Positions 16,758 through 48,140 of a DNA stretch of 64,000 nucleotides are shown here, piece by piece. The first letter of the stretch is position 1. Each line of letters opens with the position of its first letter. The notes under the pieces were generated by a model, which searched no databases, was not told the DNA's origin, and worked only from the letters and a program-made list of their open reading frames with translations. Source of the DNA: Candidatus Omnitrophota bacterium. Lineage in GTDB: Bacteria > Omnitrophota > Gorgyraeia > Gygaellales > JAQTUX01. Location: contig JAQTUX010000001.1 in assembly GCA_028707125.1 (NCBI GenBank), positions 77,639 through 141,638 of the forward strand. Direction: 5' to 3'. The translations under genes were made by a program, and so were the position numbers.

Positions 16758-17561
16758 TCACTTATTATACTCCCGCGCAAGCAATTTGTATATTCCATCC
16801 TTCCCCGATCGATTGATCCGCCGATTATTTATCCGCGCGACCGGCATAAGCCCGATAAGCGAATTTGCAATGAATACCTCCCGCGCCTTAAATAGATGAT
16901 CCGGCCGCACATCTTTTTCAATAACCTCTATGCCGCTTCTTTCCGCGGCATCCATGATCACTTTGCGCGTGATCCCGGCGAGGCATCCGCAGGAAAGCGC
17001 GGGTGTGATCAATTTTCCATTTTCTACCAAAAATATATTTGAGCGCGAGCCCTCTGCCACAAGACCCCTGGTATTCAAAAGCAGCGCCTCATCCGCTTCC
17101 ATCTTTTCTGCTTCCTCGCGCGCGAGGGCGTTAATAAGATAATTCAGTGATTTTATCCCGGCTATACCGGATAACTCATTGATCCTGAATCTGGAGATAA
17201 TTACTTTAAATCCTCTGTCGTATTCAGCGCCGGTAGGAGGCGTAAAACTATTTAACGAAATGAGGATATTGCTCCCCTTTACGCCCTTCCAGGCATTTAC
17301 GCGCATACGCGCGGTTTTGAAGTCGGCTTTATTTAGAACGGCATTTATACCCGCGCGCAGATCTTTACCTATATATATGCCTAACGTCCGCGCATTGTTT
17401 CTCAGCCGGCCGATATGCTCCTTCAAAAAAACCGGCTTGCCTTCGCATACCAACAGCGTCTCAAATACCCCGAACCCGTAAAGAAACCCCGGGTCCTGCG
17501 AGTACACCACCGCCTTTTCTCTTGGAACAATCCTACCATTCAAACAGAAAAGCTCTCTCAT
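16758..17561 (-). CDS. pabC: Class IV aminotransferase-fold enzyme, most likely aminodeoxychorismate lyase
   Basis: 267 aa. It has the fold-type IV PLP pattern (…EGSRSNIFLV…) and sits immediately downstream of pabB. The ATG is probably at 17560-17562 by my count, one base off the track. Confidence 0.65.
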   Translation of the reverse strand: MRELFCLNGRIVPREKAVVYSQDPGFLYGFGVFETLLVCEGKPVFLKEHIGRLRNNARTLGIYIGKDLRAGINAVLNKADFKTARMRVNAWKGVKGSNILISLNSFTPPTGAEYDRGFKVIISRFRINELSGIAGIKSLNYLINALAREEAEKMEADEALLLNTRGLVAEGSRSNIFLVENGKLITPALSCGCLAGITRKVIMDAAERSGIEVIEKDVRPDHLFKAREVFIANSLIGLMPVARINNRRINRSGKDGIYKLLAREYNK

Positions 17562-17568
17562 GCATTCC

Positions 17569-17643
17569 CTCTACACACTTACGTGTGTAGTATCAGCTAT
17601 CTATGCTTAGTTTGCCATTCCCCACACGTAAGTGTGGGGTCCA
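17569..17643 (-). repeat. Dual-hairpin intercistronic element, copy 1. It lies between pabB and pabC and supplies the pabC Shine-Dalgarno.
   Basis: Arm 1 is CTACACAC-TTAC-GTGTGTAG at 17572-17591. A 29-nt spacer follows. Arm 2 is CCCCACAC-GTAA-GTGTGGGG at 17621-17640. The two arms are near-inverted copies of each other. The element overlaps the last ~45 nt of the pabB ORF. Confidence 0.8.
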
Positions 17644-18997
17644 CTCCTACTGCCTGCATCATTGCCCGCGCCTTGACCAATGTCTCGTCGTATTCCTTAA
17701 GCGGGTCGGAGTCCGCGACAATGCCGCCTCCGGTATGAAAATACAGATCATCGCCCTTTTTCAAAATAGTGCGTATCAAAATATTCAAATCGGCGCTGCC
17801 CGAGAAACTGAAATACCCCAAAGAGCCGGTATATATCCCGCGTTTATGCGGCTCAAGCTCATCTATTATCTCCATAGAGCGTATTTTAGGGCAGCCGGTG
17901 ATCGAGCCGCCGGGAAATGCCGCTTTTATCAGATCGCTTATGCCCGCGCCCTGTTTTAGCCGGCCGCTTACCACGGCAGTGGTCTGGAAAACCGTCTTAT
18001 ACCGCTCAAGCCGCCTCAGATCATCCACCTTTATCGTGTTATATTCACACACCCTGCCCAGATCATTCCTTTCCAGGTCCACTATCATAAGCAGCTCTGC
18101 CTTATCCTTGGGGCTGATCAATAACTGCCTCCTCAAAGACATATCCTCGCTTCTGTTTGAGCCCCTCGGCCTCGTCCCCTTCATCGGCTGAGTACGCACC
18201 CTGCCCTGATCCACCTTGAGGAACCTCTCCGGAGAAGAGCTGGCTATCTGAAAAGTCCCGCAATCAAGATACGCGCTGAAATTAGACGGGCTGAACCGCC
18301 TTAACCGCTGATAGATATCCGCGGCGCGCGCCCCGCTGCTCACTCTGAATCTCTGCGAGAAATTGACCTGATAAATATCCCCTTCGCTTATGTAGCGCTT
18401 TGCCTGTCTTATCCGCCCGCGGTATTCATCTTTGGTCAGGTTGGACTCAAAGGATGAATTCTTTAACGCGGATCTTTGAAAATCTGATCTGCGCGCGCCT
18501 GCGTTCAACAATCTATTTATTCTTTTAAAGCCCTCTTCTGCTTTTTTCTTCTGTAAGGCCGGGCTTTTCTCGGGGAAGCCGCAGGAAAAAGCAATGACCT
18601 GCCTTTTCGCGTGGTCAAATATGAGGGCGCAGTTATAAAAATAAAGTACGCATTCCGGCAGGCCCAGATCATCCAGCGCCTTACCCTGCCTTATCTTCTC
18701 AAGCCGGAACCCCAGGTCATAGGAAAAATACCCTACCGCTCCGCCCAGGAACGGGGCAATGGGAAGCGGCGGAATTTTATAAACGGCCAAAATACGGCCC
18801 AACTCATCAATGAGCCGCAGGCTGTCCGTCTTCAGCGTGAGCGCCGGCCCAAACCCCATGAAAGAATACCTGCCGTCATAGCCGTAAGGCATGCCGCTTT
18901 CTAAAAAGAAGCTGCCCTCATCTTCGGGCAATGCCTCAAATACGATATGGGGGCTGGCCCATTTGTTAAACGACTTCCAGATGTAATATGCTGTCAA
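17597..18997 (-). CDS. pabB: Aminodeoxychorismate synthase component I (chorismate-binding enzyme)
   Basis: 466 aa. Conserved chorismate-binding C-terminal motifs are present (…RGIYTGSLGYFSFSGSADLNILIRT…PGGSITGCPK…). The C-terminal 15 aa are encoded by the repeat element. Confidence 0.8.
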   Translation of the reverse strand: MTAYYIWKSFNKWASPHIVFEALPEDEGSFFLESGMPYGYDGRYSFMGFGPALTLKTDSLRLIDELGRILAVYKIPPLPIAPFLGGAVGYFSYDLGFRLEKIRQGKALDDLGLPECVLYFYNCALIFDHAKRQVIAFSCGFPEKSPALQKKKAEEGFKRINRLLNAGARRSDFQRSALKNSSFESNLTKDEYRGRIRQAKRYISEGDIYQVNFSQRFRVSSGARAADIYQRLRRFSPSNFSAYLDCGTFQIASSSPERFLKVDQGRVRTQPMKGTRPRGSNRSEDMSLRRQLLISPKDKAELLMIVDLERNDLGRVCEYNTIKVDDLRRLERYKTVFQTTAVVSGRLKQGAGISDLIKAAFPGGSITGCPKIRSMEIIDELEPHKRGIYTGSLGYFSFSGSADLNILIRTILKKGDDLYFHTGGGIVADSDPLKEYDETLVKARAMMQAVGVDPTLTCGEWQTKHR

Positions 18998-19790
18998 CGT
19001 TAAACGTCCTTTTGTCCTGCCTCAAATAACAATTGCCCACGAGGTAATACTTTCCCCGTTCCTGCTTTATCTCCAGCGGCTCCACGTTCCTTTCCGTAAC
19101 CTCGCTGTTTGAGCGCGACAGATACCTGAGTTTCAGCTTTAGTTTAAGGTCGATCGCCTCCTGCAGCTCGGCAACCCTCTGCTGGAGCATTCTACGGGAA
19201 GTATCCGTGTTTACGGAAAAAAGGCGCAGCAGGGAATCCGTATCATCGATCCGTTTTGAGATCAGGATCTCCTTTAGTTTTTCAAAAACCCTTATGGTCA
19301 GGACCACGTCTTCATACGCCCTGTGTTCCTGGCCCGAACTTATGCCCAGCGTCCTTGCCACGTTCAACAACGAATACCCGCTTAAACCGGGCATCAGCCT
19401 CCTGGCCATGATCAATATATCCACCGCGTATAGGTCCGCGGGCAGGGCCTTGCCCAGCATCTTCAGCTCTATGTCCAGAAACCCCAGATCAAAGTTAGTA
19501 TTATAAGAAGCCAGGAGCGCCCCTTTAATAAAATCCAGGAATCCGGGCATTATCCGGCGGCTTTCCGGCGCGCCCCTGAGCATGTCTTCGCTTATATGGT
19601 TCACCTTGAACGCTGCCTCAGAAACATCCCTCCCCGGATTGACCAGCGAACAGAAAGTGGCCAGATGGACCTTGCCGCGCAGCCTTACGGCGGCGATCTC
19701 CACGATCCTGTCTCCGGAAAAGGGGTCGAGCCCGGTTGTCTCCGTGTCAAATATGACCACGTCCACGTCATTTATACTCTTGCCGGTCAT
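18966..19790 (-). CDS. DnaQ-like DEDDh 3'-5' exonuclease fused to a C-terminal WYL-like domain
   Basis: 274 aa. Exo I is VVIFDTETTGLDP, and Exo II and Exo III (HRAYEDV) are present. The C-terminal ~90 aa (…KYYLVGNCYLRQDKRTFNVDSILHLEV) match the WYL ligand-sensing domain pattern. Confidence 0.6.
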   Translation of the reverse strand: MTGKSINDVDVVIFDTETTGLDPFSGDRIVEIAAVRLRGKVHLATFCSLVNPGRDVSEAAFKVNHISEDMLRGAPESRRIMPGFLDFIKGALLASYNTNFDLGFLDIELKMLGKALPADLYAVDILIMARRLMPGLSGYSLLNVARTLGISSGQEHRAYEDVVLTIRVFEKLKEILISKRIDDTDSLLRLFSVNTDTSRRMLQQRVAELQEAIDLKLKLKLRYLSRSNSEVTERNVEPLEIKQERGKYYLVGNCYLRQDKRTFNVDSILHLEVV

Positions 19791-21130
19791 TATTTCTCCA
19801 GTAATACCGTATAGTAATTCTCTATTCTATGCGGCCGGTAAGAAAGCTTGGTCTTCCTTAAATCCTCCAGGCCGGAATCATCCATAACGTTGATAAATTC
19901 CTCTTTCCTCTCTTTGCAGAACTCCCTGAATATAAACTGCGCCAGCCCCTTGATCTTCAGGTCCGCCGCCTCAAGCAATACGCAGAACGTCCGCGTGTTC
20001 AGCTCAAACCCGAATGAATATGCGCGCAGGCGGCCCTCCACTTCAACGACCCTGCCTGCCAGGCCAAGCCCTTTGCAGTCCTCAAATACCCGCCTGTGAT
20101 AACGCAGGGCGTCCTCAAGCATAAGATCGTGCGTCCTGTCCCTTGACGCGTCCTTCCTGCCTTTGGCCCATTCCTCAAGCAGAGATACGGCGGCGTCCTT
20201 ATCGCTTTCTTTGTAGGGCCGGTATTGGAACCTGTAATTCTTCAAAAAATAATTTATGTCCGCGCGCTTTGACTTGAACCTCCCGCCCTTTAAAGCGGCC
20301 TGTTCCTCTCTAAGATACACGTACTCCCTGCCCCTTTCTTCCACGCGCAGCCCTGAGCGCCTGAATTCTTCGGCGGCATCCTCCTCTACGTTATCGATCC
20401 TTGCCGCCTTCAGGACATCCCTGATATAATTTACGGCGGACAGGTCGGCGCCCTTGCCCAAAGGGTTAAGATATAAGAACGCGCCTGAGCCGTTCTTAAA
20501 CAATATGAACAGGCCGCCGTCAAATACGGCCTGCCTTATATCAAAAAAATCCTTCCAGATGTATACGCCGGCAAAAGAATACGCCGAAAGCCGATGCTCT
20601 CCGGGCTTTAAATAACCCTCTATGAATGCCCTGTCGCCCAGGGCGATTTCCTTCAAAGATACGCGCTCAATTTCTTTAAGCGGCTCAACAGAGCCGCCGT
20701 AATCGCAGGCAAGCGAATGTATCCGGCTTAGATCCGCCCTGGCCAGCAAATGATCACGGAGATATTCCGCGTATTCAAGGAGTTTTCCTGACCGCCTGTT
20801 TTCTTCGGCATAAGGGCAGTTTGAGTCAATGCCCAAATAGGCCCTGCCGTTATGCCTGACTATGACAAAAGGGTAGATCCGGCACTCAAACGGCCTGAGA
20901 TCATATACCGAGCAGCGGTTGCCTTCTTTATCAAAGAACTCGCAGCAATATAAACCGTCTGAGCACTCCTTAAGCGCTATCCTGCTCTCTTGCTCTCTCA
21001 GCCCCTCTTTATCCTCCTTCAAAAGCGAGGGCCGGAACACGCTTTCCTTATCCGCGAAGCGGCAGCAGACCCGGCAACTCAGGCACACATCGTTGGGGAC
21101 AAATTGCTGAAGCGTATTAAATGTTGACAT
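19790..21130 (-). CDS. Fusion of an N-terminal YkgJ-type Cys-rich zinc/iron-binding domain with a C-terminal DUF2156 domain (MprF/LPG-synthase C-terminal-like)
   Basis: 446 aa. Cys clusters CLSCRVCCRF…CCEF…C…C match the YkgJ (UPF0153) pattern. The C-terminal ~290 aa are consistent with DUF2156 (…FGFELNTRTFCVLLEAAD…). This is inferred from motif memory. Confidence 0.45.
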   Translation of the reverse strand: MSTFNTLQQFVPNDVCLSCRVCCRFADKESVFRPSLLKEDKEGLREQESRIALKECSDGLYCCEFFDKEGNRCSVYDLRPFECRIYPFVIVRHNGRAYLGIDSNCPYAEENRRSGKLLEYAEYLRDHLLARADLSRIHSLACDYGGSVEPLKEIERVSLKEIALGDRAFIEGYLKPGEHRLSAYSFAGVYIWKDFFDIRQAVFDGGLFILFKNGSGAFLYLNPLGKGADLSAVNYIRDVLKAARIDNVEEDAAEEFRRSGLRVEERGREYVYLREEQAALKGGRFKSKRADINYFLKNYRFQYRPYKESDKDAAVSLLEEWAKGRKDASRDRTHDLMLEDALRYHRRVFEDCKGLGLAGRVVEVEGRLRAYSFGFELNTRTFCVLLEAADLKIKGLAQFIFREFCKERKEEFINVMDDSGLEDLRKTKLSYRPHRIENYYTVLLEK

Positions 21131-21178
21131 ATCAGAAAATGTATGTTATATTTCTTTCTCAAGAAAGGAGTTACGCAT

Positions 21179-21442
21179 ATGCCGCAAAGAAGAAACGCCG
21201 TAAAGAGAATGCGGGTTGACAAGAAGAGAAAAGCCCGCAACCAGAGAATAAAGGCCAACCTGAGAAAAACTATCAAGGACTTTTTGGCGCTTGTGTCTTC
21301 GGGAAAAATGGAAGAAGCCAGGGCATCGCTGAAAACGGTATTCTCTAAATTAGACAAGGCAGCCAAAAAAAAGATCATCCACAAAAATACCGCCGGGCGC
21401 AAAAAATCCCGCCTCAGCAGTAAAATCTCAAAAACAGCATAG
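21179..21442 (+). CDS. rpsT: 30S ribosomal protein S20
   Basis: MPQRRNAVKRMRVDKKRKARNQRIKANLRKTIKDF… matches S20 over its full length. The ORF-track start at 21143 adds 12 unlikely residues. Confidence 0.85.
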   Translation: MPQRRNAVKRMRVDKKRKARNQRIKANLRKTIKDFLALVSSGKMEEARASLKTVFSKLDKAAKKKIIHKNTAGRKKSRLSSKISKTA

Positions 21443-22069
21443 TTTTATAACTAATTTCTCCAGCGCCAGAGCAGGCCGCAGGCGCCCTGTCTTTATGTCT
21501 AATTCCGTGCCGAGCAGCGCCGATAGATTCCTCTGCCTCTGCGTGTCCGCGAGGGAATCTTTCATCAACTGATACCTTAAGGCGCCCAGTATCCTCTCGG
21601 GGCTTTCGCCTTTATGCAGCAGGTAATTAAGAAGGCGCAGGCCCGCGCCTATGTCTTTGCCTGCCACCGCCCTGCCCAGGTCAAAGGCGTTGTTTTTCCT
21701 GGCAAAGCCGATCTTTTCTATTTTTATATTGCCCGCGCTGTAGGCGAGAGCGGCCTTATCCTGTTCCCCGTCCCCTCCCGCTGTTAACACGAGAACAACG
21801 TGGGAAAACGGCTTGCCGGAATAAGCGATGAGGGATTCCTTTACCTGCGGCTTTAGTCGTTGGGCATCGCGGATCAAGACCAGGCGTTTCTTTACGCCCT
21901 GGGTGGGAAGGCGCGACAACGCCTCCTGCAGATCCTTTACGGTGAGCCCTTTGGAGGCGAGGTTTTCGTAATTGAACTGCTCAAGGCAACCGGCAAGGCA
22001 TGCCTGTTTAAACTGGTCTATCCGCGCCTGCTTCTTTTCTTCGTTGTCTCCCAATAATAAATAGACCAT
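21428..22069 (-). CDS. holA: DNA polymerase III delta subunit, unusually short form
   Basis: 213 aa. The N-terminus (VYLLLGDNEEKKQARIDQF) and domain I/II pattern resemble HolA. It has the conserved position downstream of lptE. It lacks ~100 C-terminal residues compared with typical HolA. Confidence 0.5.
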   Translation of the reverse strand: MVYLLLGDNEEKKQARIDQFKQACLAGCLEQFNYENLASKGLTVKDLQEALSRLPTQGVKKRLVLIRDAQRLKPQVKESLIAYSGKPFSHVVLVLTAGGDGEQDKAALAYSAGNIKIEKIGFARKNNAFDLGRAVAGKDIGAGLRLLNYLLHKGESPERILGALRYQLMKDSLADTQRQRNLSALLGTELDIKTGRLRPALALEKLVIKLCCF

Positions 22070-22073
22070 GGGC

Positions 22074-22613
22074 TCACCAATCTTCTATGGTCCTCTCAAC
22101 CACGCGCTTGGCGAGATCTTTGATAGCGGCATCTACAGCGCTTGATTCTGATTTGGCCTGGGAACCGGTGACGAAATAAGTGGTATCTCCGGAAAAATTG
22201 GCCTCAGACCACACCTCCTCATCATTCTTATTATCCCGGAGGGCCATATTCAGTATCAGCGTCAGGCGGTATTCAAGAACGTCGTCATTGTCGTCATACC
22301 TTAAGGCGTCCCTGCGGTAATCTATCAATTCCGCCTTTAGAATAATGTCGGCGTCCCGCGGCTGCGCCAGGCGCAGCCCACCTTCAAAGGCGTATCTTTC
22401 TATTATGGCATTGGTTATGTCCCTGTCCAGAAGCGGGTGGTAGGTCCTGAAAAGCCGCTGGTTTGCCGCCTCCTGCGTGATGTCAACTTTATTTTTCACC
22501 GGCTCCACATACACGGTCTTAAACCTGGATTTTATCAACGAACGCGTGCTGTAGCCGCAGCCGGAAAAGAGAAAAAGCGCCGCAATCATATAGATCAAGA
22601 TCCTTGGCCTCAT
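22074..22613 (-). CDS. lptE: LPS-assembly lipoprotein LptE
   Basis: 179 aa. The lipobox is LFSGCG. It has LptE-like length and composition, and the lptE-holA adjacency is conserved. Confidence 0.55.
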   Translation of the reverse strand: MRPRILIYMIAALFLFSGCGYSTRSLIKSRFKTVYVEPVKNKVDITQEAANQRLFRTYHPLLDRDITNAIIERYAFEGGLRLAQPRDADIILKAELIDYRRDALRYDDNDDVLEYRLTLILNMALRDNKNDEEVWSEANFSGDTTYFVTGSQAKSESSAVDAAIKDLAKRVVERTIEDW

Positions 22614-23572
22614 TTACCCTCCATATTTTCTATGATCGACAACCGCTCGACCGCCTCAGAAGCAAACTTGCTGTCGGGATAATCGTCCAGGACGATCTTA
22701 TAATAGACCGCGGCTGCCTTATATTCCTTCTGCTTCTCGTAGAACCTTGCCGTATCAAAATTAAACTGCGCCTCCTTATCTTTGATCCTGGTTATATTAT
22801 CCCTGGCCTTCTGGGACAGCTCCGCGTCAGGATAGACCTTGAGAAAATCCTCAAATCCTTTTTTTGCCTCGCCCGCGGCTCCGGAATCGTATTCCGGGCC
22901 GGTTGAGGTGGCTGCCTTTGTAGAGGCCAGCTGAAACCTGGCCGCGGCGACCCATTCGCTGGCAGGGTAATTGTTGGCCACCTTCTCAAACGCCTCCTCT
23001 GCCTCGTATAGCCTGCCGAGATCCTTCAGGATCAGCCCCAATTTATATTGCGCTACCGGCGCCAACGGGCCGTAGGTGGAATTTTCTATTATCTGCTCCA
23101 ATATCTCAATGGCCGGATTGTCAACCGGCAGCCTCAACCCCAATGCCTTGCGCTCCGCTTCTCCGGATATGAATTTCTCCGCTATCGCGTACTCCTTCTC
23201 AACGATCTCCTGAATGCGCTCGCTGAAAGGATACTTATCTATGACCTTCTGGTATGCCTTGTAGGCGGAATAAAAATCTGCCTGCTTCATAAGACACTCC
23301 CCCAGATAGAACTGCGCCTCGGAGGCCTCATGTGATTTAGGATAATACTTTATGAGTTTCTTAAACTCTTCTGCGGCCGGGATATAATCTCCCGCGTTAA
23401 AAAATCCTAACGCGAAATTGAGCTGCTCTTTGGGGTTCTGTTTTACCGCGTGCTTCGGGTTTACGAACCTGCCTGTCTTGGGCGTCCATACCCAGAAGGC
23501 CTGCGCCTGCGGGGCAAGAATCACAGTATTGATAAATAAAAATAATAAGAGTATCGGCCATTTATTTCTCAT
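22610..23572 (-). CDS. Periplasmic TPR-repeat protein, BamD/YfiO-like
   Basis: 320 aa. A cleavable signal is present (…APQAQA/FW). Multiple TPR-like repeats contain aromatic-rich YY/KY motifs. There is no lipobox cysteine, so the BamD identity is tentative. Confidence 0.45.
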   Translation of the reverse strand: MRNKWPILLLFLFINTVILAPQAQAFWVWTPKTGRFVNPKHAVKQNPKEQLNFALGFFNAGDYIPAAEEFKKLIKYYPKSHEASEAQFYLGECLMKQADFYSAYKAYQKVIDKYPFSERIQEIVEKEYAIAEKFISGEAERKALGLRLPVDNPAIEILEQIIENSTYGPLAPVAQYKLGLILKDLGRLYEAEEAFEKVANNYPASEWVAAARFQLASTKAATSTGPEYDSGAAGEAKKGFEDFLKVYPDAELSQKARDNITRIKDKEAQFNFDTARFYEKQKEYKAAAVYYKIVLDDYPDSKFASEAVERLSIIENMEGK

Positions 23573-25602
23573 CGGATCTCCGCTTTGAGCTCTTTGACAA
23601 GCGCCTTAAGCACGTTATCGTGCGTGCTGTTTGCCTCTTCGTCGGTCAGGGTGTGGTCATCAGAACGGTACAGGCAGGCCAACATAAGCCCTTTATACCC
23701 TTCTGGTATCTGCTTGCCGCGATAACAATCTACTACGGATACATCCTTCAGGGTATCCGCGGAGCTGCCTGCGATCACCCTTTTTACCTCTCGCGCCGGT
23801 ATCCCGCTTTTCAGTATCAGGCTGATATCGCGCCTTATGGACGGAAAGGACGGCAGGGGGCTGTATCGCCTGCTAAGGTCGGCAATACGGAAAACCTTCT
23901 CTATTTGTATCTCAGCCGCGAAGACCTTCGCGTTCTTAATGCCGAAAGTGTCCAGGATACCGGCCTCAATTTCTCCAAATACGCCTAATTTATCGCCTTG
24001 GGCGGCCAGGGAAAACGACCTCCCTTCGGCAAAGAACACGCAACAGCCCTCTTCAATCCCGTAATCATTTATGCCCAGCCCGCGGAATATCCCCTCAATT
24101 ACGCCCTTCGCGTGAAACAGCGAATACCCCTCCCTGCTGATGCCTTGCGCGAGGCATTTTATATTTTCTCCGCTTAAGGCAAAAGCCAGCGTATCCTCCT
24201 CGGTATCTTTGAAAAACCTCCTGCCCCATTCATAAACAGCGACTCTATCCTGCCTCTGGTTAAGGTTTGTCCTCACGGCATCGAGCAGGCCGCAAAGCAG
24301 CGTGGGCCGCAAAACGCGTTGTTGGGAATTAAGCGGATTAACTATGGAGCGCAATTCATCAGCCGGATATTCCAACGCCTCTAACAGCTTATAATTAAGC
24401 AAACTTACGCTTATGGCCTCGTCTAATCCCTGGCTGATGAGCGCGTCCCTGAGCCCCTTCTTCAATTTTATTTCACGCAGGGTTTCCTCGTCTATCCGCG
24501 GCCGGAACGCCGGCAAACAGGAAGGGATATTATCATAACCGTATATCCTGGCGATCTCTTCTATAAGGTCCGCCTCAATACTCACATCCTGCCTGAAAGA
24601 GGGTATGCTTACCGAGAGCTTTTCCTTCGCGTGTTTTTTTACGCCAAACCCCAACGCGGCAAGGATCGCCTTTATTCTTGCCGTTGAGACATCTATGCCG
24701 AGCAGATTCGGGACCGAGCCTTCCTTCAATATAATTGACCTGGGCCTGGCACTGAGCCCTCCGGAGACGATCATCCCTTCGTCTCGCCCTGACGCGATAC
24801 TGATAACCAACCCTGCCGCCCGCTCTGAAGCTCCAGGCAGCCCGGACCTGTCGACACCCCGCTCAAAACGATAGGAGGAGTCGGTAGAGGCCCCGGCGAT
24901 AGAACGCCCGCGCCTGACAACAATGGGGTCAAAAAGCGCTGTTTCAATAAGTATGTTTTTTGTGCCCGCGTTGATCTCCGTATCTATGCCGCCCATGACT
25001 CCGGCGATAGCTATGGGCCTGGTGTTATCCGCTATGACCAGCACATCTTTGTTAAGCTGGCGTTTTTTACCGTCTATGGCCATGATCTCCTCGCCCTGCT
25101 TTGCCCGGCGCACAGTGATACCGCCTTTAATTTTATCCAGATCAAACGCGTGCAGCGGCTGGCCGGTTTCATAGAGGACATAGTTGGTAATGTCTACGAT
25201 ATTGTTGACCGGACGAAGCCCCACCGCGCTGACGCGCTCAGCCAGCCATTTTGGAGACGGCCCCACATTAACTCCTCGTATTATTTTTGCCGTATAAACA
25301 GGGCAGTCCTTTTCGTTTTCCACCTTGACCGGAAAAGAACGCGCCTTTCTCGGGGAAGCGGCCTTCTTGGCCGCGGCAGGCCTCATCCTCCTGCCTGTGA
25401 TCGCCGCTATTTCCCTGGCAATGCCTAAGACGCTCAAACAGTCGCTGCGATTAGGGGTGACCTCTATCTCAAACACATGGTCATCCCCGAATTTAGACAG
25501 AGATGTAACTTCAAGCCCTGCCATGGTCAGCTTATCCGCCAACTTCTCCGGCGGGAGCGTAATATTGACAAAATCTTTAAGCCAATTGTATGTGACTTTC
25601 AT
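23569..25602 (-). CDS. pheT: Phenylalanine--tRNA ligase beta subunit
   Basis: 677 aa. B3/4, B5 and catalytic-like domain motifs are present. It lies immediately downstream of pheS. Confidence 0.9.
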   Translation of the reverse strand: MKVTYNWLKDFVNITLPPEKLADKLTMAGLEVTSLSKFGDDHVFEIEVTPNRSDCLSVLGIAREIAAITGRRMRPAAAKKAASPRKARSFPVKVENEKDCPVYTAKIIRGVNVGPSPKWLAERVSAVGLRPVNNIVDITNYVLYETGQPLHAFDLDKIKGGITVRRAKQGEEIMAIDGKKRQLNKDVLVIADNTRPIAIAGVMGGIDTEINAGTKNILIETALFDPIVVRRGRSIAGASTDSSYRFERGVDRSGLPGASERAAGLVISIASGRDEGMIVSGGLSARPRSIILKEGSVPNLLGIDVSTARIKAILAALGFGVKKHAKEKLSVSIPSFRQDVSIEADLIEEIARIYGYDNIPSCLPAFRPRIDEETLREIKLKKGLRDALISQGLDEAISVSLLNYKLLEALEYPADELRSIVNPLNSQQRVLRPTLLCGLLDAVRTNLNQRQDRVAVYEWGRRFFKDTEEDTLAFALSGENIKCLAQGISREGYSLFHAKGVIEGIFRGLGINDYGIEEGCCVFFAEGRSFSLAAQGDKLGVFGEIEAGILDTFGIKNAKVFAAEIQIEKVFRIADLSRRYSPLPSFPSIRRDISLILKSGIPAREVKRVIAGSSADTLKDVSVVDCYRGKQIPEGYKGLMLACLYRSDDHTLTDEEANSTHDNVLKALVKELKAEIR

Positions 25603-25608
25603 ACATGT

Positions 25609-25683
25609 CCTCTACACACTTACGTGTGTAGTATCCTTGTGCTGTTCTTGGCTTGACATTCCCCACACGTGAGTGTGGGGTCC
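25609..25683 (-). repeat. Dual-hairpin intercistronic element, copy 2. It fills the whole pheS-pheT spacer and supplies the pheT Shine-Dalgarno.
   Basis: Arm 1 is CTACACAC-TTAC-GTGTGTAG at 25612-25631. The spacer is 29 nt. Arm 2 is CCCCACAC-GTGA-GTGTGGGG at 25661-25680; the loop reads GTGA here against GTAA in copy 1, and both are GNRA. Confidence 0.8.
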
Positions 25684-25689
25684 ACATCG

Positions 25690-26742
25690 CTAAAACTGTC
25701 TTAGAAACCTCAAATCGTTCTCGAAAAATAAGCGTATATCATTTATGCCGTACTTAAGCATGGCTATTCTCTCAATGCCCAGCCCGAAGGCGAACCCGGT
25801 ATACCTCCTGCTGTCTATACCCATATTCTCCAGCACATCAGGGTGCACCATGCCGCTGCCCAGGATCTCCAGCCATCCTTTCCTGCCGCATACGGAACAG
25901 CCGCGGCCTCCGCACATGATGCAGGATATATCCACCTCTGCCGACGGCTCGGTGAAGGGAAAGAAGTGCGGCCGGAAACGCATCCGGGTCTTTTCGGAAA
26001 ACAGGGAATGGACAAAGGACTCAAGCACCGCTTTCAGGTGGCTGAAGTTTATGCCCTCATCCACCATAAGCCCCTCTATCTGATGGAACATAAAGGAATG
26101 CGACGCGTCCACCGCGTCGGGGCGGAAAACCCTGCCCGGCACGACCACGGCAATAGGCGGCTTCCTTGATTCCATCACTCTGATCTGCACCGGAGATGTG
26201 TGGCTACGAAGCAGCAGCTTCCCGCCTTTCGGCCTGTTTGCCTGCTCTTTTTGCTCAAGATAAAACGTGTCAAATACATCCCGGGACGGATGCTCAAGCG
26301 GAATATTTAACGCCGTAAAATTGTGGTATTCTGTTTCGATTTCCGGTCCGAACACGACCGCGAAGCCCATGCGCTCAAATACCGCGCATATATCATCCAT
26401 TGTTTTCGTGATCGGGTGCGGATTGCCCTGGTACTGGCTGACAGAAGGCATACTGATATCCACCGCGTCAACGCATACGGAGCCGGCCGCTCCGGAGGAT
26501 CCGATCTCCGCTTCCCTTGATCCTATTAAACGGCTGACCTCGGCCTTAAGCTCATTGATCATACTGCCTGCCCGCGGCCGTTCTTCTTTTGACAGGCCGG
26601 GTATGGAACCGGTCAAAGAAGCAAAAACGCCTTTCCTGCCCAGATACTTGTCCTTGAGGGCAAAAAGTTCTTTCCGCGTTGCGGCTTCGCCTATTTCTTT
26701 ACGCGCCTGCTCTTTAAAATCCTGAGGGTCAATACCAAGCAT
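25690..26742 (-). CDS. pheS: Phenylalanine--tRNA ligase alpha subunit
   Basis: 350 aa. Class II aaRS motifs are present (…FRPHFFPFTEPSAEVD…GLGIERIAML…). Confidence 0.9.
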   Translation of the reverse strand: MLGIDPQDFKEQARKEIGEAATRKELFALKDKYLGRKGVFASLTGSIPGLSKEERPRAGSMINELKAEVSRLIGSREAEIGSSGAAGSVCVDAVDISMPSVSQYQGNPHPITKTMDDICAVFERMGFAVVFGPEIETEYHNFTALNIPLEHPSRDVFDTFYLEQKEQANRPKGGKLLLRSHTSPVQIRVMESRKPPIAVVVPGRVFRPDAVDASHSFMFHQIEGLMVDEGINFSHLKAVLESFVHSLFSEKTRMRFRPHFFPFTEPSAEVDISCIMCGGRGCSVCGRKGWLEILGSGMVHPDVLENMGIDSRRYTGFAFGLGIERIAMLKYGINDIRLFFENDLRFLRQF

Positions 26743-27179
26743 AACAATCCTGTCAGTATAATTACCAGCCGCCTTTTGTATAAGTCAAGCGGCTCGTTAA
26801 TTTTCTTGCCCGGCCGCGTTACTGCTGCTTCAAAGGCGTGGATATCCAGGTCTGAGCCGTGGACAGCGCAGGCGCGGTTAAACACGCCTTTCACCTTAAC
26901 CCTGTCGCCCTTTACATTATAGGCGCCGACATGGCTGATTTCCGGCATGATAGCGGCAGGTATCCATACGCCTATGGCGTTATCTCCGTCGTGCAAATTC
27001 ACCAGTGCCTGATCGCCGCGCCTCATCAGGTCCCCTATTGCCTCGCCTTCAAACTCTATCTGCTTGCCGTCGAAACTCCGCGCCTCGTTAATTAATGTGT
27101 TGCTTGAAATCGGCTGCGCCCAAATACGGCCGCAGGCAAGAAAAATAAATACCGCCGGCAAGAATAATTTGCGCATCAT
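26691..27179 (-). CDS. Hypothetical exported protein with a C-terminal transmembrane anchor
   Basis: 162 aa. It has an N-terminal signal peptide and a C-terminal hydrophobic segment followed by basic residues. No family was recognised. Confidence 0.4.
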   Translation of the reverse strand: MMRKLFLPAVFIFLACGRIWAQPISSNTLINEARSFDGKQIEFEGEAIGDLMRRGDQALVNLHDGDNAIGVWIPAAIMPEISHVGAYNVKGDRVKVKGVFNRACAVHGSDLDIHAFEAAVTRPGKKINEPLDLYKRRLVIILTGLLCLVLTLRILKSRRVKK

Positions 27180-28678
27180 TTACCCCTTATAGCCGATATG
27201 ACAAAACCTATAAGCACAAATATGGACATGAATTCCAGGCGGCCAGCCCACATCTGGAACATATAGATTATCTTAAGCGTATTAGGCATGCCTGCCGAGG
27301 TTATGCCGCAGGACAGGCCCACGTTTGCCGCGGCCGACGTTGATTCAAACAATGACTGCATAAAGGGAAACCCGAAAAACATCGCCGCCAGCGTGCCCGC
27401 AAGATACATCGTAAGATAGAATAATGTGACTATGCTGGCGTTCTTTACCGCCTTATCATCAAGGAACATCTCCTTAAGATGAAAGAACCTTTCTGAAACG
27501 CGGCTTGCCTCGGGCAGCATCAACTGCCTGATATTCTGCACCGTCCCCTTTATTATCAGCCCTATCCTGAGCATCTTGATACCGCCGGAACTGGAGCAGG
27601 CGCCGGCGCCTAACGCCATAGCCAGGATCAGGCCAAAGATCGCCGTGGGATGCCATTCGGAGAAGAACTGCCCGTTGTAAATCGTGGAATACCCCGTGGT
27701 TGTATGCGCGGAGATGAACTGATAAAATCCCTTGCTGAATACTGCCTGGCCTGAAGCGTATACGCGGTAGCCGACAAGCCCCGCGGCAACAATAACAAAC
27801 AGCAGCGCTATAGACCAGAGGAACGTCCTTATCTCTATATCCTTGAAGACCGCCTTCTTATTGCTAAGCCAGATGGCATAATGCATATTAAAGTTGATGG
27901 CGCCGGACACCATAATCAGCACTGTAATCATTTCTATAAGCGGATTGTGGAAATAAAGTATGTTCTGCGACTGAGTAGTAAAGCCGCCTGTGTCAAATGT
28001 GGCCATAAAAATACACACCCCATGGAAAAATGACCTGGGCCAGCTTATGCCGTAAATCCGCGCTGCCGCGGCAAGCGCGAATGACCCCAAAAACAAATAA
28101 GTAAAACTGACTATCCAGATAAACCTCGCGGTCTGCACCACATTCGGCAGGATGCGCTCCTCGCGCGCCTCGCCCACATACATCCTGAATGCCCCTGACG
28201 CCGATCTCACCATCAGAGAAAGCACAGTGATGATAATGCCCTGGCCTCCGATAAATATGGTAAGGTGCCGCCAGAGATTGTGGGAATAAGATATATGGTC
28301 TAAGTCCTGCACCAGCACAAGTCCGGTCGTAGACAGCCCGGACATCGCGTCAAAACAAGCGTCCAGAAAAGATGCCCAGTGCCCGCTTAAATACAAGGGT
28401 ATCGCCCCCAAAAGCATCGCGGCAAGCCAGGAAAGAGAGACGGTGATCATACCCTGCATCCAATTGATATCTTTTGTGGTCCGGCAAAGAGAGACCAGGC
28501 CAAACCCTATAATCAAACTTGACAACAGGGCAATGCAGAAGTCAAGGGCGGGGTTAATCTCGCCTAAAGATAAGGCGAGGATGAGCGGAATGCCTAAAAA
28601 CAGGGAAAATCCGATAAGTATCTTTCCCAGATAATAGGCGATTATCTTGATATCTTCAAATTGCGGCCTGAGCAGCAT
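27176..28678 (-). CDS. trkH: Trk/Ktr-type potassium transporter membrane subunit
   Basis: 500 aa polytopic membrane protein with TrkH/KtrB-like repeated M1-P-M2 units. It is adjacent to two trkA genes. Confidence 0.85.
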   Translation of the reverse strand: MLLRPQFEDIKIIAYYLGKILIGFSLFLGIPLILALSLGEINPALDFCIALLSSLIIGFGLVSLCRTTKDINWMQGMITVSLSWLAAMLLGAIPLYLSGHWASFLDACFDAMSGLSTTGLVLVQDLDHISYSHNLWRHLTIFIGGQGIIITVLSLMVRSASGAFRMYVGEAREERILPNVVQTARFIWIVSFTYLFLGSFALAAAARIYGISWPRSFFHGVCIFMATFDTGGFTTQSQNILYFHNPLIEMITVLIMVSGAINFNMHYAIWLSNKKAVFKDIEIRTFLWSIALLFVIVAAGLVGYRVYASGQAVFSKGFYQFISAHTTTGYSTIYNGQFFSEWHPTAIFGLILAMALGAGACSSSGGIKMLRIGLIIKGTVQNIRQLMLPEASRVSERFFHLKEMFLDDKAVKNASIVTLFYLTMYLAGTLAAMFFGFPFMQSLFESTSAAANVGLSCGITSAGMPNTLKIIYMFQMWAGRLEFMSIFVLIGFVISAIRGK

Positions 28679-28681
28679 CTT

Positions 28682-28838
28682 AAGTCAATTTAGCGATAAA
28701 GAAAAAAATGGCCATACTTATGGCAAAACCCAGAATAATGATGGATACGCCCAGGCCCAGTTCAACGAGTATTCCGGTAAAAGACGAATACGCGGACCTT
28801 AAAAATGAGGCGGCTGCTTTAAGGGGATTGAATTTCAT
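28682..28838 (-). CDS. Small hydrophobic ORF of 52 aa between trkH and trkA
   Basis: The minus-strand translation is MKFNPLKAAASFLRSAYSSFTGILVELGLGVSIIILGFAISMAIFFFIAKLT. It has one TM helix and is below the ORF-track length cutoff. It is speculative. Confidence 0.25.
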
Positions 28839-29497
28839 ATCTTGCCGACGAGGCAGCTCAAGAGTTCCTGTTCATTCTTAATAACGGTAAGCGCTACTAT
28901 GTCGTCGCGCGGCTTAAGCACGGTATCTCCCTTGGGCACGATCACCTCATCGCCCCTTATGATGGAAACCAGGACGGAATCAGGGGGGAGCTGTATGTCC
29001 TTAACCGCCTTGTGTATAACTGGTGAATCATCCGGCAGGTCAACTCTTACTATGGTAAGCTTGCCGCGCTTAAAACTCATCAGCGTGACAAAATCCGAGA
29101 AGGACACCTCTTCTTCTATGATCTTTGAGATTATCACTGTGGCGTCTATCGGCACATCCACGCCGAGGTCGTTGAATATATGGTTATTTTTCGGGTCGTT
29201 CACCCGGCCCACGGTCCTCCTGACGCCGAAGCGCTCTTTTGCCACCTGACAGATTATAAGATTATCCTCGTCGTCGCCGGTAACCGCGGCGACTACATCA
29301 GCCCTGTCTGCCCCTGCCTCCCCTAAAAATACCGGGTCGCAGCCGTCGCCGCTTATTATAAGGCAGTCCAGCGACCTGGACATCTCGTCGCATACGGCCT
29401 TATCTTTATCGATCAGGGCTACGGTGTGCTTATCCTCCAAAAGGCGCAGCGCCAGAAAATGCCCTACCTTTCCCGCTCCGACTATGACTATATACAT
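28835..29497 (-). CDS. trkA: Trk system potassium-uptake regulatory protein (RCK_N plus RCK_C)
   Basis: 220 aa. The Rossmann motif is IVIVGAGKVG and a TrkA-C domain is present. Confidence 0.85.
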   Translation of the reverse strand: MYIVIVGAGKVGHFLALRLLEDKHTVALIDKDKAVCDEMSRSLDCLIISGDGCDPVFLGEAGADRADVVAAVTGDDEDNLIICQVAKERFGVRRTVGRVNDPKNNHIFNDLGVDVPIDATVIISKIIEEEVSFSDFVTLMSFKRGKLTIVRVDLPDDSPVIHKAVKDIQLPPDSVLVSIIRGDEVIVPKGDTVLKPRDDIVALTVIKNEQELLSCLVGKI

Positions 29498-29511
29498 AAC
29501 ACCACCTATAA

Positions 29512-30156
29512 TTAGATATTAAAGATCTTACGGACCTTTGCCAAACTCTTGATGCTGACTACCGCCATAAGAATATCGCCAAGCTTAACGCGGGTATCCT
29601 TATCCGGTATAATAACCTCTTTGATCTTCCTGATAGAGGCTATGATCAGCTCTCCCGGTATGTTCAACTCCTCTACCCGCTTATCAACCAGCTCCTTGCC
29701 GGCCTCGATCTCCAAAAGCCCCACGTCCTTGCTTTCTATAAGATACGAACTGAACTTGCTTTCAATTATCTTATCGCGCAGCATTGCCGCGAAAAGCACT
29801 GTGCCGCTGATAATATCGAGCCCCAGCGCCTGATATATATGCGCGCGCGTAGGGTCATAAACGCGGGCGATGACCTTGGGGACATTGAATATCTTTTTTG
29901 CCACCTGGGAGGATACCAGATTAGTGTTATCGCCGTTAGTCACCGCGCAGAATGCCTCTGCCTTATCTATACCCGCTGATTTAAGCACCTTTTCGTCAAA
30001 GCCGCTGCCCACAAGCGTCAGCCCGTTGAACGAACTGCCCAGGCGCGCGAACGCGCCCTCATTCTTATCAATGACTACCACATTATGGCCTTCTGTGGAA
30101 AGAAGGCGCGCCAATTCAGAGCCGACCCTGCCGCAGCCTACGATTATGACATACAT
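29512..30156 (-). CDS. trkA: Second TrkA-type RCK-domain protein
   Basis: 214 aa. The N-terminus is VIIVGCGRVGSELARLL. It is a paralog of the adjacent trkA. Confidence 0.85.
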   Translation of the reverse strand: MYVIIVGCGRVGSELARLLSTEGHNVVVIDKNEGAFARLGSSFNGLTLVGSGFDEKVLKSAGIDKAEAFCAVTNGDNTNLVSSQVAKKIFNVPKVIARVYDPTRAHIYQALGLDIISGTVLFAAMLRDKIIESKFSSYLIESKDVGLLEIEAGKELVDKRVEELNIPGELIIASIRKIKEVIIPDKDTRVKLGDILMAVVSIKSLAKVRKIFNI

Positions 30157-30165
30157 GGTAACCTT

Positions 30166-30221
30166 CCTCTACAGGCTTACGCCTGTAGAATCCTCATTCC
30201 CCACACGTAAGTGTGGGGTCC
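30166..30221 (-). repeat. Dual-hairpin intercistronic element, copy 3. It has a short spacer, lies between rplT and trkA, and supplies the trkA Shine-Dalgarno.
   Basis: Arm 1 is CTACAGGC-TTAC-GCCTGTAG at 30169-30188. Both stem halves changed (CACAC to CAGGC and GTGTG to GCCTG), so pairing is preserved. The spacer is 10 nt. Arm 2 is CCCCACAC-GTAA-GTGTGGGG at 30199-30218. Confidence 0.8.
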
Positions 30222-35635: not shown

Positions 35636-36142
35636 TTACGCCCAGACCGCCTCTTTTTTTTCTTTTACCACCGCGTCTTTTTTAGGATAGAGCTCCACTA
35701 TGACCTCGTCCGGGGAAAACCACAGCTTGATCTCCCTTTCCGCGTCCTCTTCATTGGCAGAGACATGCACGACGTTTTCATACATCCCCGATGTGGTTAT
35801 CCTGCCGTAAGAGCCCCTTATGGTAGTCGGCTCCGCCTCTTCGGGATTAGTAGTACCTGCCAGCTCCCTTACCTTCGGTATGGCACCGGGACCCCAATAT
35901 ATAAGCGCCATGACTTTTTTTCTGTCGTGAAGTTCCCCCTGTATATACTTCATAAGGTCGGGGAAAAACGGCTCATCCTTAAGGTGCTGATAATGTGTTT
36001 CCGCTAATTCCCGGCTCACCCTGACCATTTTCGCGGCTACGATCTCAAGCTTGGTCTCAGAAAGCCGGGTCAAGATATTGCCTGTCAGCGACTTCTTTAA
36101 TCCGTCCGGTTTTATAAGGACTAATGTTGCCTGATTTTTCAT
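35636..36142 (-). CDS. ndk: Nucleoside diphosphate kinase
   Basis: 168 aa. …LVLIKPDG… and NVVHVS (the active-site His region) are present. Confidence 0.85.
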   Translation of the reverse strand: MKNQATLVLIKPDGLKKSLTGNILTRLSETKLEIVAAKMVRVSRELAETHYQHLKDEPFFPDLMKYIQGELHDRKKVMALIYWGPGAIPKVRELAGTTNPEEAEPTTIRGSYGRITTSGMYENVVHVSANEEDAEREIKLWFSPDEVIVELYPKKDAVVKEKKEAVWA

Positions 36143-37844: not shown

Positions 37845-37855
37845 AAGTGGTCAAT

Positions 37856-37892
37856 AATGTTCCACGTAGAACAATGTTCTACGTGGAACATT
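37856..37892. promoter_or_regulatory. 37-bp perfect palindrome containing two inverted parS-like 16-mers, 12 bp upstream of the parA start
   Basis: AATGTTCCACGTAGAACA-A-TGTTCTACGTGGAACATT. Each 16-mer (TGTTCCACGTAGAACA) matches canonical parS (TGTTTCACGTGAAACA) at 13 of 16 positions. Confidence 0.6.
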
Positions 37893-37928
37893 TACACATA
37901 TTTTACTAATTTATCGCGGTATGTCAAG

Positions 37929-38129
37929 CTATTTATGCTGCTTGATAACTGTTACGCGCACTTTGGCGGGTTTTGCCCCGGGCATACCAAAAAGCCCTTT
38001 TTCTTCCTCGGAGAGAACTTCAATTTTGACATTATCCCTGACCTGCTTTAGCTGCTTTAACGCCTTTTTGACGGCATCTTCAATTGTATTACCTTCGATC
38101 TCTATGCTCTGCCCGGATTTATTACGCAT
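37929..38129 (-). CDS. Jag_N-domain-only small protein, the KhpB/Jag N-terminal domain
   Basis: 66 aa. SIEIEGNTIEDAVKKALKQL matches the Jag_N pattern. It has the conserved position downstream of yidC. It lacks the KH and R3H domains of full-length Jag. Confidence 0.5.
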   Translation of the reverse strand: MRNKSGQSIEIEGNTIEDAVKKALKQLKQVRDNVKIEVLSEEEKGLFGMPGAKPAKVRVTVIKQHK

Positions 38130-39624: not shown

Positions 39625-39647
39625 ATTATTATGTCCTCGGGGAAATG

Positions 39648-39860: not shown

Positions 39861-39862
39861 AC

Positions 39863-39994: not shown

Positions 39995-40057
39995 AGAGGG
40001 AAATTATAACATAGCGGGGAATTTAGTCAAGGTCAAAGTGAGAAATTCGGAAGGGGG

Positions 40058-48129: not shown

Positions 48130-48140
48130 TTTATAACGAT

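Follow-up and report, generated by a model that had tools for sequence, protein, structure and literature searches.

Paired intercistronic hairpins in an Omnitrophota genome: probable REP-like miniatures tied to an IS200-class transposase

Transposases of the IS200/IS605 type recognise hairpins as single-stranded DNA, and derivatives of these insertion sequences resembling miniature inverted-repeat transposable elements (MITEs), the palindrome-associated transposable elements (PATEs), keep two hairpins and lose the interior. A second kind of system comprises the repetitive extragenic palindromic (REP) sequences, bacterial interspersed mosaic elements (BIMEs) and REPINs (REP doublets forming hairpins) that go with REP-associated tyrosine transposases (RAYTs), as in TnpA_REP of E. 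coli and the REPINs of Pseudomonas (PMC3116915, PMC5581495, PMC3733652). Their 20-nt palindromes are extragenic and mostly arranged as inverted doublets with short spacers; they lie between co-directional genes near the upstream stop codon, sometimes give a stop codon or run into the open reading frame (ORF), show compensatory stem variants, and are linked to a single-copy Y1/HUH transposase with the same hairpins at its own locus. Single copy number and stable position are RAYT behaviour (PMC5581495), and in the published classification REPs occur only with class 2, class 3 having atypical structures and the low-copy subclass 1.2 being given as ‘no REP’ (PMC6006769). Traits of both kinds recur in a dual-hairpin element present in three copies in a 64,000-nt stretch (hereafter the window) of a Candidatus Omnitrophota bacterium (contig JAQTUX010000001.1, positions 77,639 to 141,638). 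These copies are likely to be non-autonomous REP/REPIN-like miniature elements of an Omnitrophota/Planctomycetota family tied to a small, apparently single-copy Y1/HUH transposase of the IS200/IS608 class. In its working the element resembles REP/REPIN-RAYT systems, and it also follows the same logic as IS200/IS605 miniatures, yet it lacks defining features of both.

The six hairpins of the window occupy three intergenic sites, pabB/pabC, pheS/pheT and rplT/trkA. Reading the sequence confirmed the positions, and the spacers of 29, 29 and 10 nt between the arms of copies 1, 2 and 3, given in an earlier note on this DNA. The hairpins are named here by mRNA order, hairpin A being stop-proximal (arm 2 of the earlier note) and hairpin B start-proximal (arm 1). 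On the mRNA strand each copy follows the plan GGA-[A, UYAC loop]-AAU...AU(A/U)-[B, GUAA loop]-AGG(A/G)-N4-8-AUG, with the following parts.

Copy 1, arms as read from the sequence: arm 1 at 17571-17590, arm 2 at 17620-17639
17620..17642, minus strand: copy 1 hairpin A, GGA-CCCCACAC-UUAC-GUGUGGGG, translated as the PabB tail (DPTLTCGE)
17591..17619, minus strand: copy 1 spacer, 29 nt, AAUGGCAAACUAAGCAUAGAUAGCUGAUA, holding the pabB stop codon UAG
17566..17590, minus strand: copy 1 hairpin B, CUACACAC-GUAA-GUGUGUAG plus terminal AGGGA; the pabC AUG (17559-17561) is 4 nt on
Copy 2, arms as read from the sequence: arm 1 at 25612-25631, arm 2 at 25661-25680
25661..25683, minus strand: copy 2 hairpin A, GGA-CCCCACAC-UCAC-GUGUGGGG, beginning 9 nt past the pheS stop codon
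25632..25660, minus strand: copy 2 spacer, 29 nt, AAUGUCAAGCCAAGAACAGCACAAGGAUA, its 3′ part like the 3′ end of the transposase gene (..CAGAAAAGGATA; shuffle p ~0.03)
25608..25631, minus strand: copy 2 hairpin B, CUACACAC-GUAA-GUGUGUAG plus AGGA; the pheT AUG (25600-25602) is 5 nt on
Copy 3, arms as read from the sequence: arm 1 at 30169-30188, arm 2 at 30199-30218
30199..30221, minus strand: copy 3 hairpin A, GGA-CCCCACAC-UUAC-GUGUGGGG, beginning 5 nt past the rplT stop codon
30189..30198, minus strand: copy 3 spacer, 10 nt, AAUGAGGAUU
30162..30188, minus strand: copy 3 hairpin B variant, CUACAGGC-GUAA-GCCUGUAG plus AGGAAGG; the AUG of the trkA-like gene (30154-30156) is 5 nt on

Read on the plus strand, arm 1 is CTACACAC-TTAC-GTGTGTAG at 17571 and 25612 (copies 1 and 2) and CTACAGGC-TTAC-GCCTGTAG at 30169 (copy 3), where both stem halves are altered and pairing is intact; arm 2 is CCCCACAC-GTAA/GTGA-GTGTGGGG at 17620, 25661 and 30199, the GTGA loop belonging to copy 2. 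The earlier note had taken the two arm 2 loops for GNRA tetraloops, but the plus strand is antisense here: the mRNA loops of this arm are UUAC and UCAC, and GUAA occurs on the mRNA only in arm 1. The flanking genes, identified with Pfam, are all on the minus strand, so that every copy does lie between co-directional genes, as had been claimed: a chorismate-binding enzyme (PabB-like) and a class IV aminotransferase (PabC-like), PheS and PheT, and L20 and a TrkA-like protein. Pattern searches of the window allowing up to 3 mismatches returned these sites alone (expected 0.00 in 100 dinucleotide-preserving shuffles), and a covariance model run over the whole window with filters off returned the three copies alone (E 2e-13 to 4e-6; next best match E 0.38). 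Gapless alignment of copies 1 and 2 showed differences at 11/29 spacer positions, 0/32 stem positions and 1/8 loop positions, a pattern which points to constraint acting on the hairpins since copies 1 and 2 diverged.

The element is far from confined to the window. One genome per GTDB species was scanned with the pattern CCCCACACGTRAGTGTGGGG, and the hairpin A 20-mer was found in at least 79 stretches, where we estimate that about 2 would be expected by chance (19.5-base pattern, 596 Gb). Matches came mostly from Omnitrophota and Planctomycetota, often several per genome (8 stretches in SAG AM-311-N09, for example), and in these phyla the 20-mer is half of the same dual-hairpin module as in the window: stop codon, hairpin A, AAT…GATA spacer, hairpin B, AGG(A), next start codon. 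The sense-strand consensus is a-[CCCCRCRC-TYAC-GYGYGGGG]-AAT-(4-32 nt)-(G)ATA-[CYNCANNC-GTRA-GNNTGNRG]-AGG(A), so that on either strand the loops run TYAC then GTRA (an inverted doublet) with spacers of 4-32 nt; among 43 elements the feet AAT, ATA and AGG were conserved in 42/43, 36/43 and 31/43, respectively. Most of 48 listed pairs, a few of which are one element read on both strands, had a same-strand ORF whose end fell 2-23 nt ahead of A, with the start of a second one 6-55 nt beyond B, and the opposite strand showed almost no comparable arrangement. Both neighbours lay on the element's strand in 24 of the 42 oriented elements, and both on the opposite strand in 1. Start codons were 6-12 nt downstream of B in Omnitrophota copies and up to 55 nt downstream in Planctomycetota copies, and in four loci the upstream ORF ran into the element. 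The altered stem of copy 3, CTACAGGC/GCCTGTAG, was also found in several Omnitrophota metagenome-assembled genomes.

At several of these anchor loci the hairpin A 20-mer lay inside an ORF, and 8 anchor loci carried an ORF of 120-125 aa for a Y1/HUH transposase (Pfam Y1_Tnp, PF01797, E 1e-28). These proteins scored 87-89 bits with the NCBIfam IS200 model NF033573 (cut-off 55) and 33-35 bits with the RAYT model NF047646, below its cut-off of 80; they have the conserved motifs DHVH (HUH) and Y...Q, the Y motif being YIRNQ, and the closest solved structures are IS608 TnpA (2A6M, E 4e-11) and ISDra2 TnpA (2XM3). The suggestion of a mobile REP recognised by a RAYT-type transposase is thus supported in that a Y1 transposase gene of related genomes carries the hairpins, and amended in that the enzyme is of IS200 type by sequence. 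Hairpin A lies two thirds along the gene, where it encodes T-P-H-L-R-V-G-N, aligns with ‘EFNHLKT’ of IS608 TnpA and adds no length relative to the Pfam profile. The A-B interval, of 93-99 nt, encodes FWARRYG...YIRNQKK, including the catalytic tyrosine, and the gene ends ..K-I-P-H-T-stop, the stop codon being the TAA or TGA in the GTRA loop of hairpin B; AGG(A) follows, and then the next host gene begins. Variations on this plan were seen: in L050, L056 and L171 an entire A-spacer-B unit stands in frame at the position of A; in L046 the gene lacks an internal hairpin and an A-B unit is fused to its 3′ end. Upstream of the gene (60-220 nt), a hairpin was absent in most loci inspected, the exceptions being L050 and L174, where a unit lies directly upstream.

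The hairpin has been retained in coding sequence through changes that alter the protein. Perfect 8-bp stem variants within the gene, CCCCATAC/GTATGGGG, CCCCATGC/GCATGGGG and CCCCGCAC/GTGCGGGG, encode PYLRMG, PCLRMG and PHLRAG, respectively. Among the motif-bearing proteins (82/120), H/R/L (codons C..) were paired with V/A/G/E (codons G..) in 68/73, and Y/C (codons T..) with M/T (codons A..) in 8/9; nucleic-acid structure therefore constrains the protein sequence.

A profile search returned 157 family members at E ≤1e-10, those with names being annotated as Candidatus Omnitrophota IS200/IS605 transposases. Nearly all protein clusters at 90% identity were represented on 1-2 contigs each; cluster P0030 was recorded on 17 contigs of differing sample origin, and the 8 places listed for it, like one more that is similar, all lay at the same oppD/oppF junction. 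At all loci inspected the gene was fitted closely between co-directional host genes, the gaps measuring 8-45 nt, and no tnpB was present with it. Despite its IS200-like sequence, the transposase therefore apparently behaves as RAYTs do, with a single copy at a stable position. At one locus (L020 2260-2370), three tandem B units (agataCCACACACgtaaGTGTGTGGagtcaaaaaaa) stand between the transposase stop codon and the ATG of the next gene.

Many miniature spacers keep the ends of the gene's A-B interval, namely its first 8-10 nt (AATRTTCGA) and its last 8-11 nt ((CAG)AAAAGGATA/T), with shuffle p ≤0.01 in 9/15 spacers tested. Gene and derivatives occur together within a single genome, SAG AM-311-N09, in which L028 holds the gene and L012, L024, L026 and L043 hold elements with kept interval ends. 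No spacers of 33-92 nt were found in the family. These comparisons of sequence identify the miniature elements as the A...B segment of the gene with its interior deleted, and the window copies are assigned to the family by their hairpins, conserved feet and continuity with its other members. GGA...AGGA surrounds all three window copies and ATGT...ATGT surrounds copy 2, but no consistent target-site duplication was found family-wide, and in Planctomycetota the purine-rich left flank of the elements matches the coding sequence 5′ of hairpin A in the transposase gene; since the flanks are inconsistent and this left flank matches gene sequence, no target duplication is claimed.

Set beside the described systems, this arrangement differs from each. 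Its transposase is IS200/IS608-like, with the Y motif YIRNQ and a score below the RAYT cut-off, whereas RAYTs are class 2 proteins with Y...NP. REPs bear an unpaired GTAG/CGTC tag; none is present here, the feet being AAT and (G)ATA on the spacer side, and the GTAG of the window's B unit pairs with CTAC. Unlike those of REPINs, the two arms do not covary into one long hairpin, and, unlike in REP systems, one hairpin lies inside the transposase coding sequence, the doublet having arisen from the gene's 3′ part by deletion. The conserved 3′ AGG(A) and the hosts, Omnitrophota and Planctomycetota, set it apart from REPs and REPINs as well. The IS200/IS605 sequences are the closest to the transposase and share its HUH and Y...Q motifs, but their hairpins flank the gene in the same orientation, whereas here the ‘left’ hairpin is internal and the loops are inverted; moreover, the gene is single-copy-like at fixed operon junctions (oppD/oppF, 17 contigs) rather than a multi-copy insertion sequence, and lacks tnpB. 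TnpA_REP subclass 2.4 also has cognate palindromes inside a Y1 transposase ORF (Quentin et al. 2018, PMC6006769). Those are class 2 proteins with a Y...NP motif and a median of ~194 aa, and their REPs are insertions (PMC6006769), whereas hairpin A is a native, alignable segment of the core domain, insertion applying only to the extra B unit of L050, L056 and L171. Correia elements of Neisseria and other intercistronic MITEs are likewise small, abundant, co-transcribed inverted repeats that bring expression signals to a neighbouring gene, but Correia elements have one long hairpin cleaved by RNase III, promoter elements and a TA target duplication, none of which was seen here.

Copy 1 bears on a further comparison, since the element supplies both the C-terminus and the stop codon of PabB, as had been proposed. 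The pabB ORF runs through hairpin A and terminates in the spacer, so that the last 14-15 residues, ..V-DPTLTCGEWQTKHR*, are element-encoded; the Pfam domain of this 466-residue protein extends to residue 442. Rickettsia palindromic elements (RPEs) and intragenic REPs (PMC3733652) are similarly read through, although RPEs are longer and lie in frame within genes, whereas here there is only C-terminal read-through into an intergenic element. Directly upstream of pabB (window 18966-19790, minus strand) is an ORF with an RNase T-type exonuclease domain and a C-terminal WYL domain, as identified with Pfam.

No transposase or remnant was found in the window by tblastn and the family hidden Markov model in all six frames, in agreement with the earlier note, which had seen no RAYT there. 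The PheS of the window is 100% identical to MDD4909163.1, and family member P0045 is MDD4909898.1, from the same accession series; going by these accessions, the window's genome encodes one family transposase, recorded as MDD4909898.1, roughly 700 genes away. This protein is intact, bears the HUH and Y motifs, contains TPHLRVGN and ends RILHT. Translation of GGATA-CTACACAC-GTAA, the B variant found in the window, would give ‘I-L-H-T-stop’, and genomes with CCACACAC have I-P-H-T; the RILHT end is therefore suggestive, and only suggestive, of a window-type hairpin B in the MDD4909898.1 gene. The argument is weakened by L171, in which ILH is encoded without a hairpin. In the MDD4909898.1 gene, hairpin A would read CCCCACACTTACGTGTGGGG for TPHLRVG, and B would read ..AGG ATA CTA CAC ACG TAA GTGTGTAG.

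Relatives lack the element at the same junctions, so it is no conserved regulatory module of the operons concerned. In the closest syntenic relative (L176, PheS 74% identical), which has the same order thrS-infC-rpmI-rplT-trkA-trkA-trkH-x-pheS-pheT, the rplT/trkA gap is 14 nt, an empty site, and pheS/pheT holds a different, AT-rich inverted repeat. In 80 metagenomic PheS-anchored loci (506 kb; PheS 51-64% identical), no copy was found by regular expression or covariance model; in about half of them the pheS/pheT junction is TAA-N1-6-ATG, and the others have unrelated palindromic inserts. Given these empty or tight junctions, the window elements are lineage-specific insertions into ancestrally tight junctions. 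The pheS/pheT junction of relatives (L080-L159) is in its own right a hot spot for unrelated palindromic inserts (e.g. L091 5017-5078, L095 2718-2775, L080 5038-5095, L114, L157). One type, flanked ATGAA|CCCCGCC...GCGGG|GTGAA, has the look of a pheT start region that was duplicated, GGAAG preceding a new GTG start.

The mRNA 3′ ends of the three copies read B-AGGGA-AUGC-AUG, B-AGGA-CAUGU-AUG and B-AGGAAGG-UUACC-AUG. In copies 1 and 2 the element's AGGGA or AGGA is the sole Shine-Dalgarno-like motif, at a spacing of 4-5 nt, and motifs of the AGGA/GGAG type precede 35/53 window genes. In copy 3, comparison with L176 indicates that the AAGG next to the start codon is probably host sequence and that only the preceding AGGA is element-derived. 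The proposal that the terminal AGAGG of the element is the ribosome-binding site is thus supported by the conservation of AGG (31/43) and by the Shine-Dalgarno distance in copies 1 and 2, but not by the probable host origin of the AAGG in copy 3; the proposed 5-7 nt between AGG(A) and AUG does not hold for copy 3, where the gap after AGGA is 8 nt.

Covariation was assessed in 43 distinct aligned elements with spacer interiors removed, under two pairing models. Under the model of two local hairpins, 12/16 pairs had changes on both sides (70 cells, compared with 14.5 in shuffles); the score was reached by 0/500 shuffles, and controls with slid pairing collapsed. As the hairpins were collected at ≤2 mismatches, their 98.5% pairing is partly by construction. 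However, the partner of an exact-match anchor, picked without sequence selection, was almost always a hairpin, sometimes with a very different stem (a 12-bp stem in L007). The compensatory stem change of copy 3, which the earlier note had described correctly, is one instance of this family-wide pattern. A single long A:B hairpin, such as a REPIN or an RNase III substrate would form, is rejected: 83.5% of cells were paired, below the shuffle mean of 84.5%, and double changes occurred in 2/20 pairs. The REP/BIME-like architecture of near-inverted arms is supported, but the arms do not covary with each other and no long hairpin is conserved. Sense G.U and sense A.C were equally frequent among unpaired stem cells (8 each), and so give no sign of whether RNA or single-stranded DNA is under selection.

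The minimum-free-energy fold of the RNA gave two local hairpins in all three window copies (z -3.5 to -4.2), in which AGG(A) stays free in copies 1 and 2, whereas in copy 3 the 3′ part of this motif pairs with upstream AACCU. None of the six hairpins was called as an intrinsic terminator on the minus (mRNA) strand, the sole call being copy 3 arm 2 in antisense; no hairpin has a T-run or U-tract after it on the mRNA strand, and intrinsic termination is ruled out. In Rfam 15, gathering scores in the window were reached by tRNAs alone, and E-value mode likewise gave no matching family; around copy 1 the best matches were at chance level (e.g. miRNA precursors, 16 bits against a gathering score of 90). 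Intergenic hairpins of this family should not be annotated as terminators or riboswitches.

Rarer arrangements of the hairpins include B...A order and tandem B arrays. L015, L045, L062, L029, L044 and L054 have the reversed order B-AGG...17-19 nt...A-AAT, and in L029, L044 and L054 these reversed doublets are flanked by an inverted repeat rich in CACCAAGACACAAAG; they may represent places where two neighbouring elements meet, or composite elements. Where some genomes have a doublet, others have at the orthologous site one hairpin alone or a B with part deleted (L063 and L078, compared with L048/L036 and L030/L004); what L078 lacks is exactly B plus spacer. Doublets therefore gain or lose units within a short span of evolution. 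Hairpin repeats whose stems are similar while their loops and feet differ, ttaaCCCCATGCtgaaGCATGGGGttaa and CTCCGCACtttaGTGCGGAGatatcc, occur in PheS-anchored relatives (L148 7312-7499, L145 1237-1271) and may be diverged cousins of the family.

In Acidobacteriota and Bacteroidota the 20-mer is preceded by (G)TAG and belongs to arrays in which further tetraloop hairpins surround a Y1 gene, the context of classical GTAG-tagged REPs (PMC3733652). Tagged examples are L005 2400-3460, L066 3460-4140, L017, L032, L060, L074 (Owenweeksia) and L042, L051 and L079 (Acidobacteriota), and the arrays are shared with the hairpins GTGCC-GAA-GGCAC and GTCCC-TTC-GGGAC. Those of L005 and L066 adjoin Y1 genes with the Y motifs YIRNQKQHH and YIENQEKHH, which resemble subclass 1.2 of Quentin et al., given there as not REP-associated (PMC6006769). 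A viral contig collection held no match to the motif, and a phage origin was ruled out on that ground. A literature search on the hairpin sequence found no paper.

The orientation of the window copies can also be set against replication. A likely origin lies at window 47829-48140, with the sign of GC skew changing near 48 kb, next to the following genes.

48141-49505, plus strand: dnaA
49683-50777, plus strand: dnaN
51105-55982, plus strand: gyrB/gyrA

All called genes left of the origin are on the minus strand, and all to its right are on the plus strand up to 63253, giving full co-orientation with replication over 64 kb. Since GC skew flips at dnaA, the A-to-B strand is the lagging-strand template in 3/3 copies, a result from three copies that is confounded with gene orientation. 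The copies in this respect fit IS608 and ISDra2, whose active strand is reported to be on the lagging-strand template (PMC6006769). In the family loci, 20% of coding sequence is on the opposite strand, and replication-linked and transcription-linked orientation are not separable from these data. Elsewhere in the window, G+C falls to 0.44 at 36001-40000, compared with ~0.50-0.52 in neighbouring segments.

Taking the copies as miniatures tied to the transposase, the enzyme would bind both hairpins while the lagging-strand template is single-stranded, and the A...B unit would be copied in trans into new sites. The insertions that survive would be those in short gaps between co-directional genes, tolerated because the unit would be ‘polarity-neutral’: it would offer stop codons (UAA or UGA in the B loop and, in the window's genome, UAG at the end of the B stem), it would cause no termination for want of a U-tract, and its terminal AGG(A) would restore or reinforce the Shine-Dalgarno of the downstream gene. 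The two independent, stable 8-bp mRNA hairpins would probably act as exonuclease barriers, as a by-product, and an RNA role in stability, processing or Shine-Dalgarno delivery is plausible. Several points weigh against this interpretation. Transposition in trans is deduced from sequence, and the hairpins identical to the window's A and B in the MDD4909898.1 gene are deduced from its protein only. The spacers of copies 1 and 3 are not significantly like the gene interval when taken alone, that of copy 2 having p ~0.03, and the elements may be old, as the window holds no near-identical recent copies. Classical IS200/IS605 ends flank the gene, whereas most loci here have no hairpin upstream of it; the hairpin loops are opposite on one strand, unlike IS608 ends, so that perhaps one is recognised per strand; and only ~3-5 nt beyond each hairpin are common to the elements. 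Finally, elements that act as RNA would also be expected to show strict co-orientation with transcription.

That last point leads to a rather unlikely alternative, in which the element is a host cis-acting intercistronic ‘stop-hairpin-hairpin-SD’ RNA cassette and the link to a transposase is its evolutionary origin only. Hairpin A would guard the upstream 3′ end and B the downstream 5′ end after cleavage in the A/U-rich spacer, with AGGA driving re-initiation. Orientation fixed relative to transcription (24 compared with 1) fits such a cassette, but as the window genes are all co-oriented with replication, insertion on the lagging-strand template predicts the same orientation there. AGG(A) is kept 3′ of B, with Omnitrophota start codons 6-12 nt downstream and Shine-Dalgarno motifs of the AGGA/GGAG type in use at 35/53 window genes, yet the distance from B to the start is up to 55 nt in Planctomycetota. 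Both hairpins are present in the RNA fold, with the Shine-Dalgarno unpaired in copies 1 and 2, and the stems of these copies are identical despite divergence of their spacers; against this, the stems bear no RNA-strand signature (8 sense G.U, 8 sense A.C). Moreover, every relative examined lacks the element at these junctions and normally shows tight TAA-N-ATG coupling there, and the same hairpins are kept inside a protein-coding gene, where end protection makes little sense.

It is improbable, in our judgement, that the A...B segment is a nested mobile unit carrying the catalytic C-terminal ‘exon’ of its transposase, the gene being assembled or inactivated by movement of its own 3′ module and the miniatures co-opted in gene-dense genomes as portable intercistronic adaptors, the whole forming a mutualistic system of REPIN type around an IS200-class enzyme. 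If this were true, such adaptors, each with a stop codon, two end-protecting hairpins and a Shine-Dalgarno, would let tightly coupled genes uncouple without polarity.

Less credible again is that the copies are inert fossils, no longer mobilised or functional, which are kept since their deletion would harm the downstream ribosome-binding site. One would then expect what the window indeed shows, three copies only, diverged spacers, no recent duplicates and no transposase within 64 kb, as well as the partly deleted copies seen elsewhere (L063 and L078, compared with L048 and L030). However, neutral decay would not give 0/32 stem differences alongside 11/29 spacer differences between copies 1 and 2, compensatory rather than random changes dominate across the family, and the genome still has a family transposase that is intact, HUH and Y motifs included. 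Chance similarity or local duplication, for which the small copy number in the window alone would speak, can be dismissed given a shuffle expectation of 0.00, strong covariation, and the same module with its flanks in dozens of genomes of two phyla.

If the copies are miniatures of the transposase family, as we favour, the REP/REPIN phenomenon extends to Omnitrophota and Planctomycetota and to a Y1 transposase of the IS200 class (class 1). An enzyme of 120 aa with HUH motif and a defined 20-nt hairpin target could also serve site-specific conjugation of protein to single-stranded DNA. The maintenance of an 8-bp hairpin in a coding gene through compensation that changes amino acids (H/V, Y/M, C/M, H/A) is an argument that the gene itself contains the DNA site of its enzyme. 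In the window's genome the C-terminal tail of PabB is encoded by such an element, and elements that bring their own stop codons and Shine-Dalgarno would explain how compact genomes tolerate small insertions between translationally coupled genes.

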